A DNA stretch of 64,000 nt from a virus. This document shows positions 3,295 to 23,682 of this stretch, piece by piece. The stretch covers positions 64,001 through 128,000 of the IMG/VR virus record IMGVR_UViG_3300009151_000034. One strand, given 5' to 3'. Under the pieces are notes generated by a model. The model did not search any database. It saw nothing but the letters and a program-made list of their open reading frames with translations, and was not told the DNA's origin. Numbering within the stretch: the stretch's first letter is position 1; the number at the start of each line of letters is the position of its first letter. The position numbers and the translations under genes are program-made.

Positions 3295-3515
3295 TTCATA
3301 TACTCATAACATATTCAACCACAAACGGAGCATTTATAAAGTTCATCTTCCCATACCCCATTCACATTTTCGGGGGCTGGGCACTTTTTACCACCATTTT
3401 CAAAATATAAACATTCAAATGGCCTTTCTGGTTTACGGACATCGCGGACTAAAAAGTTATCTTTTTTAATAATTTTTAATTTCATTTTATATTTTCCTTT
3501 TGTTTTATGCGGGTA

Positions 3516-3773
3516 TCAATTCACATTAAGCTTTGCAGGCTCAACAAAATAATAGCCCTGTTCTCTCAGATAGTCAAGTTGTTTTTCAGTTGCTTTGATG
3601 GCAGGATAAACACTGGATCGTTCATAACTAGGATTGAAAGCCCATAGTTGATATATTTCTACACCACACTTAAGAGCATGATACGTGAAATGACCTAGTG
3701 ATGCCTTTGAAAGATTTGGTATTTTTCCTTCTCTCTCAGAAATATGATATGCTTTTTTCGTATCTACCTTCAT
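3516..3773 (-). CDS. hypothetical protein
   Basis: 85-aa ORF in packed minus-strand run. Confidence 0.5.
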   Translation of the reverse strand: MKVDTKKAYHISEREGKIPNLSKASLGHFTYHALKCGVEIYQLWAFNPSYERSSVYPAIKATEKQLDYLREQGYYFVEPAKLNVN

Positions 3774-3966
3774 ACTCTCTTAAATTCTCATTAACTTGCC
3801 AAAATGAAAAGTGGTTAGCTTGTTCAGTTATAGAATATTCTTTATTATAAGGAATCCAAATTCGTTCCCTTATTTTTTCATTCTGTGTGTTTCTTGTCAT
3901 TTTCCATAACGTATCTTTTATATCATCATGTATTTTATATGCAAAAATACTTTTCTTACGCATCAT
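3736..3966 (-). CDS. hypothetical protein coupled to last QV mini-gene; possibly a degenerate member
   Basis: Start overlaps EDLNDA tail of 3956..4156; WQVNENL near C-terminus. Confidence 0.45.
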   Translation of the reverse strand: MMRKKSIFAYKIHDDIKDTLWKMTRNTQNEKIRERIWIPYNKEYSITEQANHFSFWQVNENLREYEGRYEKSISYF

Positions 3967-4156
3967 TTAAATCTTCCCTGACTTGATCCCAGATTTGATA
4001 GCTGACTTGATCTCCGACTTGATCTCCGACTTGATCGTGGACTTGACACCTGACTTGAATACCGACTTGATAGCTGACTTGATCCTCGGCTTGTTCACAG
4101 ACTTGATACCAGACTTGCCCGCTGACTTGTTTATTAATTTGTTTTTTAACAGTCAT
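3956..4156 (-). CDS. QV-tetrapeptide repeat mini-protein (array 1)
   Basis: MTVKKQ...(QVxx)n...EDLNDA, 66 aa. Confidence 0.7.
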   Translation of the reverse strand: MTVKKQINKQVSGQVWYQVCEQAEDQVSYQVGIQVRCQVHDQVGDQVGDQVSYQIWDQVREDLNDA

Positions 4157-4346
4157 CTAAATCTTCCCTGACTTGACTACTGACTTGACTCCTGACTTGA
4201 CTACTGACTTGACTCCTGACTTGAATACCAACTTGATTCCAGACTTGATCCTGGATTTGATCCCAGACTTGATAGCTGACTTGATCCCAGACTTGATCCC
4301 TGACTTGATAGCTGACTTGATCCCAGATTTGTTTTTTAACGGTCAT
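4146..4346 (-). CDS. QV-tetrapeptide repeat mini-protein (array 1)
   Basis: MTVKKQ...(QVxx)n...EDLDDC, 66 aa. Confidence 0.7.
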   Translation of the reverse strand: MTVKKQIWDQVSYQVRDQVWDQVSYQVWDQIQDQVWNQVGIQVRSQVSSQVRSQVSSQVREDLDDC

Positions 4347-4512
4347 CTAAATCTTCCCTGACTTGACTATTGACTTGATCCCCGGCTTGATCCCCGACAT
4401 GATCCCAGACTTGTTCACAGACTTGATACCAGACTTGATGCAAGACTTGATGCAAGACTTGATCCCCGGCTTGTTCACAGACTTGTTTACTAATTTGTTT
4501 TTTAACGGTCAT
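4336..4512 (-). CDS. QV-tetrapeptide repeat mini-protein (array 1; below ORF-track cutoff)
   Basis: Manual translation MTVKKQISKQVCEQAGDQVLHQVLHQVWYQVCEQVWDHVGDQAGDQVNSQVREDLDDR, 58 aa. Confidence 0.7.
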   Translation of the reverse strand: MTVKKQISKQVCEQAGDQVLHQVLHQVWYQVCEQVWDHVGDQAGDQVNSQVREDLDDR

Positions 4513-4702
4513 CTAAATCTTCCCTGACTTGATCCCAGACTTGATCCCAGACTTGATTTGTGATTTGAACCCTGACTTGATCCCCGACTTGATCCCTGAC
4601 TTGACCACAGACTTGATGCCTGACTTGATTACCGACTTGATACCTGACTTGTTCCCAGGCTTGATCCCAGATTTGATACCTGACTTGTTTTTTAACGGTC
4701 AT
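4502..4702 (-). CDS. QV-tetrapeptide repeat mini-protein (array 1)
   Basis: MTVKKQ...(QVxx)n...EDLDDR, 66 aa. Confidence 0.7.
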   Translation of the reverse strand: MTVKKQVRYQIWDQAWEQVRYQVGNQVRHQVCGQVRDQVGDQVRVQITNQVWDQVWDQVREDLDDR

Positions 4703-17249: not shown

Positions 17250-18245
17250 TTATTTTGAATTCCCGGTGAGTTGTGTGTCACTTTTAATTGTTTTAAGAAT
17301 GCCAGCAGCACCTTCAGTTTTTGCTCTAAGAGAAAGGATGATTTTTCCTTTATGTCTAAAATTTACTGAATTATCTTCATGGGTTACATCAAGATTATTA
17401 TGATCGTTCAAATAATGATCATAATCAATATGTGGATTAATTAAACTAGTATGATAGTTTCCGTTAATGCCACTTGATACAACCCTAATATGATCTTGTC
17501 CGGTATTATTTGCGTGCAATAAATTTCTTAAATGACGTGCCAATTCTGGTTTGGGTAATTGTGAATAAGCTTTATGCCATCTGCTTGCAATTGCAGGTAA
17601 TAATTTTTTTCGTTCTGCTGCTTCATCGGCTTTTAGTTGTGGGTTTTTAGGAACGATTTTCTTTAATTCTGCTCGTGATTTTCCTTTAATTTCATCTCCG
17701 TATTTGTCTTCAAGTTTTTTTCTTGATGTATCTATCATATTCTGAGATGACTGTTTAAACCCCAAACTATTTTCAATAGCACCTAACCCAGGTGCCTTAA
17801 TATGTGCTGGTTTGCCTTTTTCCTTATGTGCTTTTAAACTGATTCCTAAATGTTTACCATTTTTTTTGGTAATGTAAATATCAGACGAATCTTCATTTTG
17901 TGTTTTTTCAACACCAGTAATTTTTTTAACGTCACCAGATTTTGCAGACCGTTGAACATGACCAATATTTTCTCTGCCACCAACATGTTTAAATATGGCA
18001 TCAGCAGCAAGTTTTGCTCTTTGAAAATGATCATCATAATCTTGAGGAGTCATTGTTTTTTTGATTCTATCGTGTGCTTCTTCTGGCGTTTCTTTTTTTG
18101 AATTTGGAGGATTTTCCATATGTTTTCCCCCAAGCAAATGATAACCAGTCAATAATTCGTGCATATCTCCATTTGTTTGGACATCTGTTTTTTTGTTATC
18201 ATCTTCATAGAGATATAAAGATAAAAATTCTTTGAAACGTATCAT
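17250..18245 (-). CDS. putative PD-(D/E)XK-fold nuclease with capsid-targeting-like N-terminus
   Basis: GDMHE, SSDIYI...GISLK; starts MIRFKEFL; TATAAATA at 18279-18286. Confidence 0.55.
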   Translation of the reverse strand: MIRFKEFLSLYLYEDDNKKTDVQTNGDMHELLTGYHLLGGKHMENPPNSKKETPEEAHDRIKKTMTPQDYDDHFQRAKLAADAIFKHVGGRENIGHVQRSAKSGDVKKITGVEKTQNEDSSDIYITKKNGKHLGISLKAHKEKGKPAHIKAPGLGAIENSLGFKQSSQNMIDTSRKKLEDKYGDEIKGKSRAELKKIVPKNPQLKADEAAERKKLLPAIASRWHKAYSQLPKPELARHLRNLLHANNTGQDHIRVVSSGINGNYHTSLINPHIDYDHYLNDHNNLDVTHEDNSVNFRHKGKIILSLRAKTEGAAGILKTIKSDTQLTGNSK

Positions 18246-18289
18246 GGGTATATATAACCTTTTTATTAAAGACTAATATATTTATATAA

Positions 18290-18320
18290 AAAAAGGGTAG
18301 ACCTTTCGATCTACCCTTCT
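18290..18320 (-). terminator. intrinsic terminator
   Basis: AAGGGTAGA/TCTACCCTT stem plus long T run. Confidence 0.8.
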
Positions 18321-18430
18321 CCCAAACAACATGACTGAGAGGAACCCCACCTTGATCTCAGTTATTCCTGTGCTTATATTCACTATGCCACTTATACGTA
18401 ATCAAAACGTATTGCAAGTTGTCTGTCGTA
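18291..18430 (-). ncRNA. putative late structured ncRNA, family unassigned
   Basis: TATAAATA at 18435-18442, several helices, own terminator, no ORF in track. Confidence 0.5.
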
Positions 18431-18448
18431 AGTTTATTTATATAAAAC

Positions 18449-18649
18449 TTAATGCATACTTTTGCATACTCCTTCTGCAATGAAAGCAGGGGTCCATCCG
18501 TTAAACCCAACCTTATTTTTATTTAAATTGTTACAATATGTCTGGGCTTTTACTGCCTGATCGAAATGCATCACATATTGTTCTGTTGTGATTTCGTATA
18601 TTGACCAAATATTAATTCCACTTTTTTCAACTCGATATTTCTTAATCAT
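18449..18649 (-). CDS. hypothetical protein
   Basis: 66 aa, ends GFNGWTPAF. Confidence 0.55.
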   Translation of the reverse strand: MIKKYRVEKSGINIWSIYEITTEQYVMHFDQAVKAQTYCNNLNKNKVGFNGWTPAFIAEGVCKSMH

Positions 18650-19866
18650 TATTTAAAATCCTTAAAATTATTCTTGTTAAATTTAGGTTTGCTACTGTAA
18701 AATTCATCATTATCACGAGTTCCAAATGAAGTTTTGTCCATCAAAGGTCGATCATCAACAATATCACTCTGTGCAATATCTTCAACATCATACAATTTCA
18801 TCTTGCTCTTGTCAACTCCAATCACAAAACGTTTGTGCAGAGAAATATCATTATATCTGTTCTTCAATTGCTTCACCATAATTTGATTCATCGCTGCAAG
18901 TTCTTCGGTGCTGATAAGGGCAATCATCAAATCAGCAGTAGCAGGAAGTCCAAAGCTTTCTGATGTATCTTCAAGACCAACATCAGAATTATTAAAACCA
19001 CCACGAGTTGTTTGTGTGGCTGTAACAATTGGAACATTAAATTCCACGGCCAAACCACGAAGTTCCTCTGCGATAGCCTTGACATATGTATAGCTGTTAA
19101 TATTAGCTGTATATTTTATTCGAGAACTAGAACAAATGTTTAGATAGTCAATATAAATAATATCAGGCTTGAAATTCTTTTTTAACTTCAACTCATTAAG
19201 AAGATAACGAAAGTTTGATGAACCAGCAGAGGAAGTTGGGTATTCTTTGATGATTATCTTGCCCATAGTTTTACTTTTGATACGGTCAATCTTGCGCTGA
19301 TAGGTTTCCTTTGGCATCATAGATAGTTCTTTGATTGGAGTATCAAGTAAGTTGGCATCGATACGTTCTGCGATTCGTTCTTCTGCCATTTCCATTGTGA
19401 TGTAAAGAACATTCTTACCAGCCATAAGATTAGCAGCAGCACAATGACACATGAAAAGAGATTTACCAACACCAGTATTGTGTGATGATACACCATTTGT
19501 ATAATATCTGTGGTTTTCGTGATCAACTTGAATATCAACGATTGGTATTTTATTATTTATTTTTTTAACAATTCCACGAACGTAACCACAATCAGTAAAA
19601 AACATCTGATAATCGTTAGTTAAATCTTTTGCATATTCCCACCCATTTTTAGTTTCAAATAAATGATTCTCATTTACTCGGACAATTCGGTTATCATCAG
19701 TCTCTAAACGATATTCGTCCCATTCTCCCTTATCAACAAACGTAGATACCGGAACAAATCCATCAGGTGAAGTAACTTCTATTTCATAACCATCAGAAAT
19801 ATATTTTGCAATTTCGCCAATTTTTATTTCTTTTTCTTGCCATTCGGTCATAAGTTTTTCTTTCAT
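18649..19866 (-). CDS. 41: split-intein C-fragment + C-terminal half of gp41 replicative helicase
   Basis: VDIQV..YYTNGVSSHN|TGVGKS splice junction then DnaB-like motifs ITMEMAEE, IDYLN, TATQTTR. Confidence 0.93.
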   Translation of the reverse strand: MKEKLMTEWQEKEIKIGEIAKYISDGYEIEVTSPDGFVPVSTFVDKGEWDEYRLETDDNRIVRVNENHLFETKNGWEYAKDLTNDYQMFFTDCGYVRGIVKKINNKIPIVDIQVDHENHRYYTNGVSSHNTGVGKSLFMCHCAAANLMAGKNVLYITMEMAEERIAERIDANLLDTPIKELSMMPKETYQRKIDRIKSKTMGKIIIKEYPTSSAGSSNFRYLLNELKLKKNFKPDIIYIDYLNICSSSRIKYTANINSYTYVKAIAEELRGLAVEFNVPIVTATQTTRGGFNNSDVGLEDTSESFGLPATADLMIALISTEELAAMNQIMVKQLKNRYNDISLHKRFVIGVDKSKMKLYDVEDIAQSDIVDDRPLMDKTSFGTRDNDEFYSSKPKFNKNNFKDFK

Positions 19867-19903
19867 TTTATATAAATAAAGTTAACAGGAACGGGAGGTA
19901 TTA

Positions 19904-20533
19904 TTGATGTTTAACATGATATACAATAATTTATGTCGTAGCAGAAGTCAACTAAAAAATTTATGGGTTAAAGGATCAAATATTCATCGTCATCACATTA
20001 TACCAAAACATCAAGGTGGATTAGACGAAGAAACAAATTACACTTATCTTTCGGTGAGAGAACACATTATAGCCCATTATCTATTATGGAAAATTCATAA
20101 GAAACCAAACGATTTACGCGCTATGCATATGTTAGGTTGTAATTTAACTAGTGAACAAAGAAAAACGATTGGTATTTGGTGTAAAGATAATAATATAGGA
20201 ATATTTGACCCAACTAAAAATTTTAAATCAGAATGGTCAAAGCGTGGGGCTAAAACTCAAATGGATAAAAAGATCGGAATACATAATCCAGATAATTTCA
20301 AAAAAAATGCTTCTTTTGGAGGTAAAGCAGGAGCAAAAATTCAAATGGATAAAAAGATCGGAATACATAATCCAGATAATTTCAAAAAGAATTCCTCTCT
20401 TGGGGGTAAAGCACTTAAGAATATGGTTTGTGTAACAAATGGAAAACACAGGACAAGAATTCATCCTGAAAGATTAGAGGAATTCTTGTCAAATGGTTAT
20501 ATCAAAGGGTTTGTTCTTTTTACCGATATCTAA
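19904..20533 (+). mobile_element. free-standing HNH homing endonuclease between the gp41 halves
   Basis: HRHHIIPKHQGG..N...L..REH..AH..L; TATAAATA at 19871-19878; internal 27-aa duplication. Confidence 0.85.
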
Positions 20534-21146
20534 TTTTAATTAACGTATCAGGATGAACACAGCCTGCAAGAATAACATTGAGTGTCTTGTTTGGTAATCC
20601 ATCATCAGTGATTTTGTTTAGATAAGATAGATCGAAAGCAACACGAACTTCTTTACGGTGATAAAAATCATAGCGAGAATCACTATCATCTATCCAGTTA
20701 TGCCCAATATTACTATCAAAACTAACCGCAAGCGCATCAGACAAAATCTGTGGAATAGAACCCTTAGATAATGTTTTTTCTGAGCTTCCATCTATGATTT
20801 GAATAGACTGCCGAATACCATTATAGATTGCTTTTTCTTGACAAAACTTTTCAGTCTGATCTACAAGCCATTCAATACTCGTATCAGGTTCAAAGTCTAA
20901 TTGGCTAATCGACTGCGATGCACTAGTAAAAACATTTTGGTCAACATGTTCTTTGTTGGAAAGTTCAATATTAAGCGCCTCTTGTGTAGGAAAATTATTA
21001 TATTTTTGAACATAGTTATTAATTAATTCAAATATAATTCTATCACCGCCATTTTCGAAATATTCTTGTTTTAGGAATGGAATAACCTTCCTGCCATACT
21101 CTTCGCGTAGAATCAGATTTCCGAAAATAACTTGTTCAAAACTCAT
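20520..21146 (-). CDS. 41: N-terminal half of gp41 helicase + 13-aa split-intein N-fragment
   Basis: gp41 N-domain ending KTLNVILAG|CVHPDTLIKIRYR*. Confidence 0.92.
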   Translation of the reverse strand: MSFEQVIFGNLILREEYGRKVIPFLKQEYFENGGDRIIFELINNYVQKYNNFPTQEALNIELSNKEHVDQNVFTSASQSISQLDFEPDTSIEWLVDQTEKFCQEKAIYNGIRQSIQIIDGSSEKTLSKGSIPQILSDALAVSFDSNIGHNWIDDSDSRYDFYHRKEVRVAFDLSYLNKITDDGLPNKTLNVILAGCVHPDTLIKIRYR

Positions 21147-21155
21147 AAAAAACTC

Positions 21156-21371
21156 CTATAAAAACTTATTTTCGACTTTAAATATTCCTGCACAATAATT
21201 CTCTGCCATATCATGTGCATAGTGCATGTTATGATCTTTACATTCTTGTAAATCTAACATGATATCATCTTTATAGAATTCTATAAAGATGGTCATGCCA
21301 ATAACAGAGATGGCAGATTTTAGTCTGCCATCCTTGCTATAATATACTTCATTATGACTCGGTAGACTCAT
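21156..21371 (-). CDS. hypothetical protein
   Basis: 71-aa ORF between uvsX and 41. Confidence 0.55.
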   Translation of the reverse strand: MSLPSHNEVYYSKDGRLKSAISVIGMTIFIEFYKDDIMLDLQECKDHNMHYAHDMAENYCAGIFKVENKFL

Positions 21372-22395
21372 TCTCCATCATCTCCCCTTGTGCCATAGTA
21401 TACTTGTTCTTAATCCATGATGCGAAGTCTGTTGTCTTAAGAACATCTTTCCAAAACTCGGAATTATTATCGATCTCAGATGCACGATAATTCTTGCTGA
21501 GTTCACCAGTTTCCTTATCAACCTTGGCATACCATCCGTTCTTTGGCTTTACAATATAGCCTGCTTCAACTGCCAAGTCAAGTAGTCCTGACCATTTATT
21601 GATGCCACCGTCATAAGAAACCGTAATAGGAATTTTTGACTTTTCTTTGACGTAACGAGACTTTTCGACATTAATGATAAAGTGATAACCTTTGATTTCT
21701 TTATCATCCTTATCTTGCTGGCGACCAAGAATCCAAATATTATCAGCACCATAATATGAACCAGTGCCACCACCTACAATATCTTTCGGATATAGACCGA
21801 TTTCTTTGTAAGTATGATTAATCACAACCATAGGAATATCCTTAAGTGTTAACTTGGCTGTCACAATGCGGAAGAAAGACTTGAGAGCTTTTGCTCGTGT
21901 CATATCAGCAACAGTCTTACCTTCGATTGCGTCTTCGGTTTCTTTCTTGGATGCAAGATTTCCAATCGAATCAATAACAATAAAAATTTTATCCTCTCGA
22001 CTTAGTTCTTTCAATTGAACCGAAAGATCATGCTTTAGTTCTTCCACATCGGTAACGGGTGAGTGAATGACCGAATCGTGCGGAATATTGAAAGTATCAA
22101 AATATCCTTGAGGCGTTCCAAATTCTGAATCATAAAACAAAATAAGACCATCCTTATACTTACGAAGGAAAGCAGAAGCCAAAAGTAAAGCAAACCCGGT
22201 CTTAAAATGTTTTGATGGTCCTGCAAGCATTGTTACACCTGGGGTAATTCCACCATCAAGTGAACCAGAAAGTGCCACATTGATCATTGGAATTGGTGTA
22301 GGAATCATATCTTTTTTAGAATAAATTTTACTCTCACTAAGCATAGAAGTATGTTCGAGTGTAGAGTTCTTGATTAGCTTATCACGTAGAGACAT
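21352..22395 (-). CDS. uvsX: RecA-like recombinase UvsX
   Basis: AGPSKHFKT, YDSEFG, IDSIGNLASKKE; start MSLRDKL with AAGGA RBS. Confidence 0.95.
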   Translation of the reverse strand: MSLRDKLIKNSTLEHTSMLSESKIYSKKDMIPTPIPMINVALSGSLDGGITPGVTMLAGPSKHFKTGFALLLASAFLRKYKDGLILFYDSEFGTPQGYFDTFNIPHDSVIHSPVTDVEELKHDLSVQLKELSREDKIFIVIDSIGNLASKKETEDAIEGKTVADMTRAKALKSFFRIVTAKLTLKDIPMVVINHTYKEIGLYPKDIVGGGTGSYYGADNIWILGRQQDKDDKEIKGYHFIINVEKSRYVKEKSKIPITVSYDGGINKWSGLLDLAVEAGYIVKPKNGWYAKVDKETGELSKNYRASEIDNNSEFWKDVLKTTDFASWIKNKYTMAQGEMMENESTES

Positions 22396-22574
22396 TTTAT
22401 TTTCCTTTTGTATGCTTATATTTCGTTTTGAAAGTATTTTACGGGCTTCTCTGAATGCTTCTTTAACTGCATCATATCCCTTTTCATGACCACTTGATCT
22501 ATACCACTCACAATCTGGCGGGCATTCTTTTTCTAGTCCACATCCACAGCCGCCACCATGATCATATTTTGCCA

Positions 22575-23682
22575 TTACATATAGTCCTCCAATGTAAGTT
22601 GTCTTTCTGCTTGCCAACCAATAACATCAAGAATTGAAGTAATTGGATCAAGGAAAGTCTTCTGGAACTGCATATCATAATCCACATACTTCTGCAAGTC
22701 AAATTCATCTGGTAGACTTTCAGGGACCGAAATAACCGTATCCTCAATGATATTAGGCATTCTGAGATAAGCAAACTTAATCTTATCATTTTCACCAATC
22801 AACGGATATTTGTTGCTCAGTTCTTCGTTATTTTTAATAAGATTGTTATATAACAGAGCGCCCTTCACATGGATTGGAGTCCCTTTGATGTATACTTCTC
22901 CGTCTACTTTGGAGGCATACTTATCAAGTCCCTTCACCCCACGAGGAAAAGCAATATCCTCGAAAGGAAGATTTCTGAAATTATCTTTGAATTCAGCAAT
23001 AAATGCTTGGGTAGTTTTTTCATCCTTATTCATAATAATTTCGAGTGCCTTCTTGATATTGACACGGGAAGCCTTTGGAGTTGAAGAACGAACCGATTCG
23101 ATACCAGAAACTTTTACTTGTGGTTCAGAAAACTGCACGCCTTCAATATTCCAGGCATTCAAAATATACATCTTCTTTCCTCGCCAAATACCTTTACTGG
23201 CAATCGTTTCGCGTTTCATAAACATCTTTTGCTTATATGCATTCATGTAAGACGCAAGTTCTTCATATGACTTGTTAATCATAGGTTGAATTTTTTGTTC
23301 ACAGAATTCATCAAGCATCTTGACAATTTGTAGTTCGTCAGTGATGCCAACCTTGTTCACTAGACCTTCCATATCAACATAGATCGAGTCCGTATCAGAT
23401 GCAATAAGGTAATCGAAATTTTTGGTCTTGAGAATTCGGTTAAGATATTCATTCATTTTATTTCCGATCCAACGAACGGAAAGTTGTCCTGACATTGTAA
23501 TGGCTTCAGCAAGATTGAAGTCAAACCAGCGGAACCAGACGTTACCAAGAGCACCATATGCTGAGTTAAAGTTGCACCTTTTTGGCTAGTTGCAAATTAT
23601 GATACTTTGAAACATCCCTTTCTACCTTTTTCTTGAGTTCAATCAATTCGCTGTCACTTAATTTGCTGTAATCGTCTAACAA
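22575..23682 (-). CDS. 43: DNA polymerase B, C-terminal subunit (gp43B); needs +1 shift at 23568
   Basis: TTG start with GGAG; KKVQL/NSAYGALGN motif B broken by one extra T; ASDTDSIY motif C. Confidence 0.88.

Follow-up and report, generated by a model that had tools for sequence, protein, structure and literature searches.

A putative S1-split intein with a 13-residue N-terminal fragment in the Walker A loop of a viral gp41 helicase

Described split inteins and the gp41 locus

The subject of this analysis is a predicted split intein in the replicative helicase gene gp41 of an uncultured T4-like phage, the N-terminal fragment of which (IntN) is only 13 amino acids long. The locus lies in a stretch of 64,000 nucleotides (G+C content of 37%), referred to here as the window, which corresponds to positions 64,001 to 128,000 of the IMG/VR record IMGVR_UViG_3300009151_000034; the source record is a complete virus genome of 149,097 bp with terminal repeats. 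Based on sequence comparisons, the element is probably a naturally split class-1 mini-intein, broken at the site named S1 in the Walker A loop of the only helicase gp41 of the genome. The same comparisons suggest that it was broken by an HNH nuclease gene, that the tail of its IntN was cut by an AAA→TAA substitution, that it is spliced in trans, and that it is mobile as a cassette.

In the literature, S1 denotes the split site used by the VidaL and PolB16 inteins (PMC13014065). VidaL (PDB 6vgv/6vgw) is naturally split at this site and has an IntN of 16 amino acids (Burton et al. 2020, as cited in PMC13014065). It resembles the window intein in being cysteine-dependent and split right after strand β2, in combining a basic IntN with a long acidic C-terminal fragment (IntC), and in originating from phage-like metagenomic DNA. 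However, the two inteins are about 28% identical, and their IntN fragments differ in length (16 vs 13 amino acids). Compared with VidaL, the window intein is marked by Thr at position +1 and by a block B that reads NENH. By sequence, VidaL groups with the inteins of UvsX recombinases (phages PA5oct and Salicola SCTP-2), and not with gp41 inteins. An intein reportedly named "VidaL T4Lh-1" by Neugebauer and co-workers in 2017 may sit in a T4-like helicase.

The shortest natural IntN characterized, called "record-short" in a 2026 paper (PMC13014065), is the 15-residue IntN of PolB16 OarG (PMC10189870). This intein shares with that of the window the natural S1 split and the very short IntN, but it is cysteine-independent (Ser1 and Ser+1), its IntC has 168 amino acids, and its host is a PolB polymerase. 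The natural atypical split inteins AceL-TerL and GOS-TerL, found in phage-like terminase genes (PMC11766414), also have short IntN fragments; however, these are longer than that of the window (25 and 37 amino acids, respectively), and the split is at the S2 site, after helix α1. Additionally, the engineered S1 splits of Ssp DnaB M86 and Ssp DnaX S1, with an IntN of 11 amino acids, splice (PMC13014065, PMC11766414). They are split at the same position as the window intein and, although man-made and laboratory-evolved, show that a β1-β2 IntN of 11-13 residues can support trans-splicing.

With respect to the host gene, the closest parallel is provided by the "fractured genes" of gp41-1 to gp41-9, in which the split halves of a T4-like gp41 flank a free-standing homing endonuclease gene (Dassa et al. 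2009, PMC2677866). The window locus has in common with them the T4-like gp41 host, the nuclease gene between the halves, the occurrence of loci that have lost the nuclease, and the gene-breaking model. In contrast, gp41-1 to gp41-7 occupy another site (P-SSM2 position 356) and have a canonical break, with an IntN of about 88 amino acids, and gp41-8 and gp41-9 are located at two further sites. Moreover, whereas the nucleases described by Dassa et al. are GIY-YIG or Vsr-like, that of the window is HNH-type, antisense, and located in the S1 loop of a P-loop intein. No description of the S1-split gp41 P-loop family was found in the searched literature, which leaves room for an earlier one. S1-split inteins with an IntN of 15-16 amino acids have already been characterized, and the window intein is a short member of this common, partly known kind. 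With 13 amino acids, its IntN undercuts the shortest characterized natural one by two residues, which is a modest record.

The intein and its split site

In the window, gp41 is encoded by two open reading frames (ORFs) on the minus strand. The N-half (20520..21146, 208 amino acids) starts with an ATG preceded by a strong AGGAG Shine-Dalgarno sequence, and encodes the gp41/DnaB N-domain (PHROG 19, DnaB-like helicase, E-value of 1.2e-40). Its first 195 amino acids represent the gp41 N-extein (20562..21146), which ends with NVILAG, the first half of the Walker A motif, and is followed by the 13-residue IntN CVHPDTLIKIRYR (20523..20561). The latter includes Cys1 (codon at 20561-20559), block A and the predicted strands β1-β2, and ends with Arg13 (20525-20523), directly before the TAA stop codon (20520..20522). 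The C-half (18649..19866, 405 amino acids) begins with an IntC of 130 amino acids (19477..19866), or 125 if the second ATG, at 19851, is used. The IntC contains block B with NENH and blocks F/G (VDHENHRYYTNGVSSHN), and ends with VSSHN. The C-half then continues from Thr+1 as the gp41 C-extein (18649..19476, TGVGKS...), comprising the DnaB_C ATPase domain (Pfam E-value of 6.6e-15) and the stop codon. The gp41 extein is about 72% identical to those of T4-like cyanophages and of the Methylophilales phage Melnitz.

These boundaries had already been proposed in the original prediction, which was based on the letters of the window. Re-reading of the sequence agrees base for base with the proposed end of the N-half, where LAG is directly followed by CVHPDTLIKIRYR and a stop (20523-20561), and also with the C-half opening with an intein part of 125-130 amino acids that ends in SSHN/T (19477-19866). 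The block B sequence VNENH and the Thr at +1 are both present in the C-half ORF. Likewise, the proposal that joining of the exteins would rebuild Walker A is borne out by intein-less gp41 fragments, which show an unbroken ...LAGTGVGKS... (P0164, P0169, P0172, P0197 and others).

The assignment of the insert to a class-1 mini-intein with a HINT fold in the gp41 P-loop is supported by several comparisons. The best sequence match of IntC is the VidaL intein (6vgv, E-value of 1.3e-9), with weaker matches to the gp41-1 and DnaX inteins; the Pfam intein models gave no match to the window protein. The fold was analyzed with an AlphaFold2 model of the contiguous allele L005 (predicted local distance difference test score of 86.5), which is 85-87% identical to the window intein and stands in for its two pieces. 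In a Foldseek search with this model, VidaL was the top match (template modelling scores of 0.85/0.88, root-mean-square deviation of 1.6 Å), and the approximately 40 top matches were all inteins or intein-like (BIL) domains. PolB16 OarG was a weak fold match, at rank 43-46.

In an alignment of 10 family members, the block-B His, HENHRYY and SHN/T are invariant and NENH varies once (NEDH). VDHENHRYY is present in the IntC of the window, and the replacement of the block B Thr by Asn extends across the whole gp41 P-loop intein family. Cys1 is retained in 93 of 93 split N-halves. Moreover, the ratio of nonsynonymous to synonymous substitution rates (dN/dS) of IntC is 0.11 between the window and the contiguous L005, and the net charges of the two fragments are +2 for IntN and -9 for IntC.

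In the L005 model, strand β2 comprises intein residues 7-13 and is followed by a loop (residues 14-17), and then by another strand and helix α1. The IntN of the window aligns to residues 1-13 of the contiguous alleles, and its stop would therefore be placed at the exact end of β2. Judged by this model, the intein is broken directly after β2 and before α1, i.e., at the S1 site.

The database search with IntC matched 840 proteins, and its best 120 clusters included 98 split C-halves and 14 contiguous inteins. The intein family is abundant in metagenomes, and the arrangement is well beyond a chance occurrence. When the N-half was used as the query, 93 of the best 120 clusters ended in an IntN. 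A length of 16 amino acids was the most frequent (37 clusters), followed by 17 (20 clusters), 18 (16 clusters) and 14 (9 clusters); IntN fragments of 15 and 19 amino acids were found in 4 clusters each, and those of 20-23 amino acids in 3. The conserved IntN core can be written as C-V-H-P-x-T-x-[IV]-x-[IV]-R-x-[RK], and is usually followed by Lys and a variable tail. The range in these clusters is 14-23 amino acids; the original prediction had placed the 13-residue fragment of the window at the very short end. Among deposited phages, tblastn with IntC revealed no gp41 instance, only UvsX and terminase inteins (31-35% identity). When the region was searched by megablast, no near-identical genome was detected in a set of 50,697 phage records.

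Origin of the split, the short IntN and the cassette

As shown by comparison of the alleles, the split was made by insertion of the nuclease gene into a formerly contiguous intein, because a near-identical gp41, P0245, carries the intein unsplit. This protein (612 amino acids) is 92% and 96% identical to the N- and C-halves of the window, respectively, and reads LAG/CVHPDTLIKTRYRKKEQT-TEWQEKEIKIG...SSHN/TGVGKS in a single frame. P0244, with an N-extein 99.5% identical to that of P0245, is yet in the split form and ends with RYRKKEQTL before its stop codon; both kinds of allele, the one that contains the nuclease gene and the one that lacks it, therefore occur in one lineage. The insertion point is located between ...KKEQT and TEWQ..., with Leu and a stop codon added to the N-half and MKEKLM added to the C-half. 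Further contiguous alleles are L005, L009 and P0005/8/12/50/52/69/83/93.

A split in the same place was found in seven other viral contigs (L006, L007, L008, L010-L013). In L007 and L012, the halves are separated by a homologous HNH gene in antisense orientation; in L006 and L010, a longer antisense nuclease gene takes this place. The nuclease gene is absent from L008, L011 and L013, which have a spacer of only 56-173 nt and are still split; split alleles therefore appear to outlast the loss of the nuclease gene. Persistence of the split after nuclease loss represents stage III in the gene-breaking model of Dassa et al. (PMC2677866).

The short length of the window IntN can be traced to a single base. 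At this place, the sequence is cgg AAA aaa gaa caa acc ctt tga in the metagenome contig L016 and cgg TAA aaa gaa caa acc ctt tga in the window. The A→T change at position 20522 thus converts the Lys14 codon, AAA in the relatives, to a stop codon, and leaves KEQTL and its TGA (20502..20519, minus strand) as an untranslated relic of the earlier IntN tail. The 19-residue form, ending with RYRKKEQTL, is also found in P0244 and P0123. According to this alignment, one AAA→TAA substitution cut the variable tail KKEQTL off a 19-residue IntN and left the conserved core whole. The substitution also affects the nuclease, which is encoded on the plus strand: close to its C-terminus, Ser is replaced by Thr, and the window has LFTDI vs LFS in L007 and L012. 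An exact-pattern scan of viral contigs for the allele of the 208-residue product found nothing, and the scan of metagenomes found only the AAA allele, in L016.

Comparison with L016 also delimits a mobile cassette consisting of IntN, the nuclease gene, IntC and P-loop codons (19457..20564). Only 4 differences are present in 1,108 nt (99.6% identity), whereas both flanks are about 75-80% identical, and the N-exteins of the window and L016 have 72% protein identity. The identity tract begins 3 nt before the Cys1 codon and ends 20 nt past the Asn codon, within the P-loop codons. The four differences are the nonsense change at 20522, two changes in the nuclease gene (20389 and 19937), and a Thr/Met change in IntC (19742). 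Because the near-identity stops at the borders, with much less similar flanks, the alignment indicates that the intein and the nuclease gene moved recently as one cassette between two gp41 backgrounds.

The nuclease gene itself (19904..20533, plus strand, antisense to gp41; likely start ATG at 19907) encodes a putative free-standing HNH-type homing endonuclease of 208/209 amino acids (PHROG 655, E-value of 2.7e-16; weak Pfam HNH match), and the last 14 nt at its 3' end are shared with the IntN codons. Within the gene there is an 84-nt tandem duplication (20246-20329 and 20330-20413, about 90% identical), which is also present in L016 and encodes two copies of KKIGIHNPDNFKKN.S.GGKA. The gene is preceded by a T4-type late-promoter motif, TATAAATA (19871-19878, plus strand), observed 16 times in the window vs 6.6 expected, and by the Shine-Dalgarno sequence GGGAGG (19893-19898, plus strand). 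The nuclease gene was found only once in the genome. A possible control hairpin upstream of this gene, which would mask the ribosome-binding site, was also considered, and is unsupported (z-score of +1.2).

Within the 149-kb genome, DnaB_C was matched by the C-half alone, and neither a second intein copy nor another intein block-G signature was found. The replicative helicase should therefore be completable only by trans-splicing, and we infer that the phage depends on it. Stop read-through of the N-half TAA was rejected, as there is no suppressor tRNA among the 13 tRNAs of the genome.

By the comparison of the alleles, the loop after β2 of a contiguous intein took up a free-standing HNH gene in antisense orientation, and this gene supplied both the stop of the N-half and the new start of the C-half. 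For the completion of the protein, the following mechanism is proposed. The products gp41N-IntN (195+13 amino acids) and IntC-gp41C (130+275 amino acids) would be translated separately, and the basic 13-residue β1-β2 hairpin would dock onto the acidic, near-complete IntC. The Cys1 thioester would then form and the acyl group would be transferred to Thr+1, after which cyclization of Asn130 would leave the P-loop restored as LAG-TGVGKS. It is plausible that 13 residues are enough for splicing, because they include all of β1-β2, the natural tails vary down to a total IntN length of 14 amino acids, and an engineered 11-residue S1 IntN works. There is about an even chance that the 13-residue fragment is fully competent, being the shortest natural split-intein piece known and a minimal S1 IntN made of the bare β1-β2 hairpin, and that the intein and the antisense HNH gene form one homing unit invading intein-less gp41 P-loops. 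The extent of the near-identical stretch, which reaches no further than the intein and about 20 nt of the P-loop codons, fits with a free-standing nuclease serving the intein that it broke.

Alternative explanations and biological significance

It is important to mention the observations that weigh against a functional S1-split intein with a 13-residue IntN. The curated intein hidden Markov models scored below their cut-offs (TIGR01445, 17.5 vs 24.5 bits; TIGR01443, 13 vs 15.6). No other 13-residue IntN occurs in the 93 N-half clusters, where clustering at 90% identity could mask cases, and Lys14, missing from the window IntN, is near-universal in the family. The exact 208-residue N-half product is on record on 4 contigs (JGI/IMG and Logan), which may stem from overlapping read sets. 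Finally, the start of the C-half lacks a recognizable Shine-Dalgarno sequence (leader ...TTTATTTATATAAAATG, 19867-19900, minus strand). On the opposite strand, the stretch with the promoter motif and the Shine-Dalgarno sequence of the nuclease gene (19871..19898) borders this start codon. A C-half Shine-Dalgarno sequence (GGAG, AGGA or GAGG) is present in six of the seven split relatives, with or without the nuclease gene; the exception, L012, has the same nuclease type as the window and the same missing C-half Shine-Dalgarno sequence.

The loss of the conserved Lys14, a family minimum of 14 amino acids, and the single base that separates the window from L016, P0244 and P0123 would also fit with a recent defective allele, or with a sequencing or assembly error, in which case splicing would be impaired, the working IntN would have 19 amino acids, and the genome would be that of an unfit or non-viable variant of the phage. 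We consider this unlikely: the exact product is recorded on four contigs in both JGI/IMG and Logan, and the genome is complete, with terminal repeats. Furthermore, the lost residues would lie in the loop past β2 of the model, where length and sequence vary freely, nine clusters stop at residue 14, and engineered S1 IntN fragments of 11 amino acids splice (PMC13014065).

It could also be argued that, as in phage Aeh1 with its intein-less split NrdA, the gp41 pieces work without covalent splicing and the intein halves are a non-covalent dimerization module, because split genes that lack inteins can function (Friedrich et al. 2007, as cited in PMC2677866). This appears very improbable, however, considering that the break is inside the P-loop, so that an unspliced complex would hold about 143 extra residues in Walker A, and that Cys1, the block-B His, the penultimate His, Asn and Thr+1 are all conserved, with the low dN/dS of IntC given above.

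Removal of the 650-nt insert as an intron, or its translational bypass, to yield a contiguous intein precursor has a negligible probability. The insert codes for a protein in antisense orientation and carries a promoter motif and a Shine-Dalgarno sequence of its own. Its excision would leave the TAA in place, as this stop codon precedes the insertion junction by 6 codons. Moreover, the nuclease-free relatives stay split, with a C-half that has its own Shine-Dalgarno sequence, and an Rfam search over 18000-22000 (E ≤ 1) found no intron or other RNA family.

Several related loci have further inteins. Two inteins are present in one gp41 in some relatives (L005/P0005, L008 and L013): the P-loop intein and a canonical gp41-1-type split intein at ...TTRSGF/C. 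In L008 (C-half ORF 3468-4664) and L013 (3309-4637) the P-loop intein is also split, and the helicase is in three pieces. In L008 (55-2361), L011 (3-1282) and L013 (1066-2673), a canonical split intein also breaks up uvsX, the gene next to gp41, with a nuclease gene between the uvsX halves in L008; the uvsX gene of the window (21352-22617) is intact. A VidaL-type S1-split intein was also observed in UvsX of the cultured jumbo phage PA5oct (NC_071039.1, 134722-137728; L002:61-2769, L017:123-368). In this phage, gp276 (81 amino acids, annotated as "hypothetical") corresponds to the N-extein and a 17-residue IntN, CLPETAKVKIRLSKKQS; gp275 (477 amino acids, also "hypothetical") has a Vsr-like nuclease C-terminus, and gp274 contains an IntC of about 130 amino acids, followed by UvsX. 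In Salicola phage SCTP-2, the UvsX intein is contiguous, and uvsX contains one more intein.

For protein semisynthesis and live-cell labelling, short natural IntN fragments are in demand, since a short piece can be made chemically. The window locus provides a natural 13-mer, and the gp41 P-loop relatives represent a large panel of predicted Cys1/Thr+1 S1-split inteins with naturally varying tails. For one intein allele, the contiguous form, the form split by the nuclease gene, the form still split after nuclease loss, and the form with a trimmed tail are all in hand. This series constitutes a clean and unusually complete case of gene breaking at a non-canonical site. With regard to phage mobility, the same cassette appears in two diverged phage lineages.

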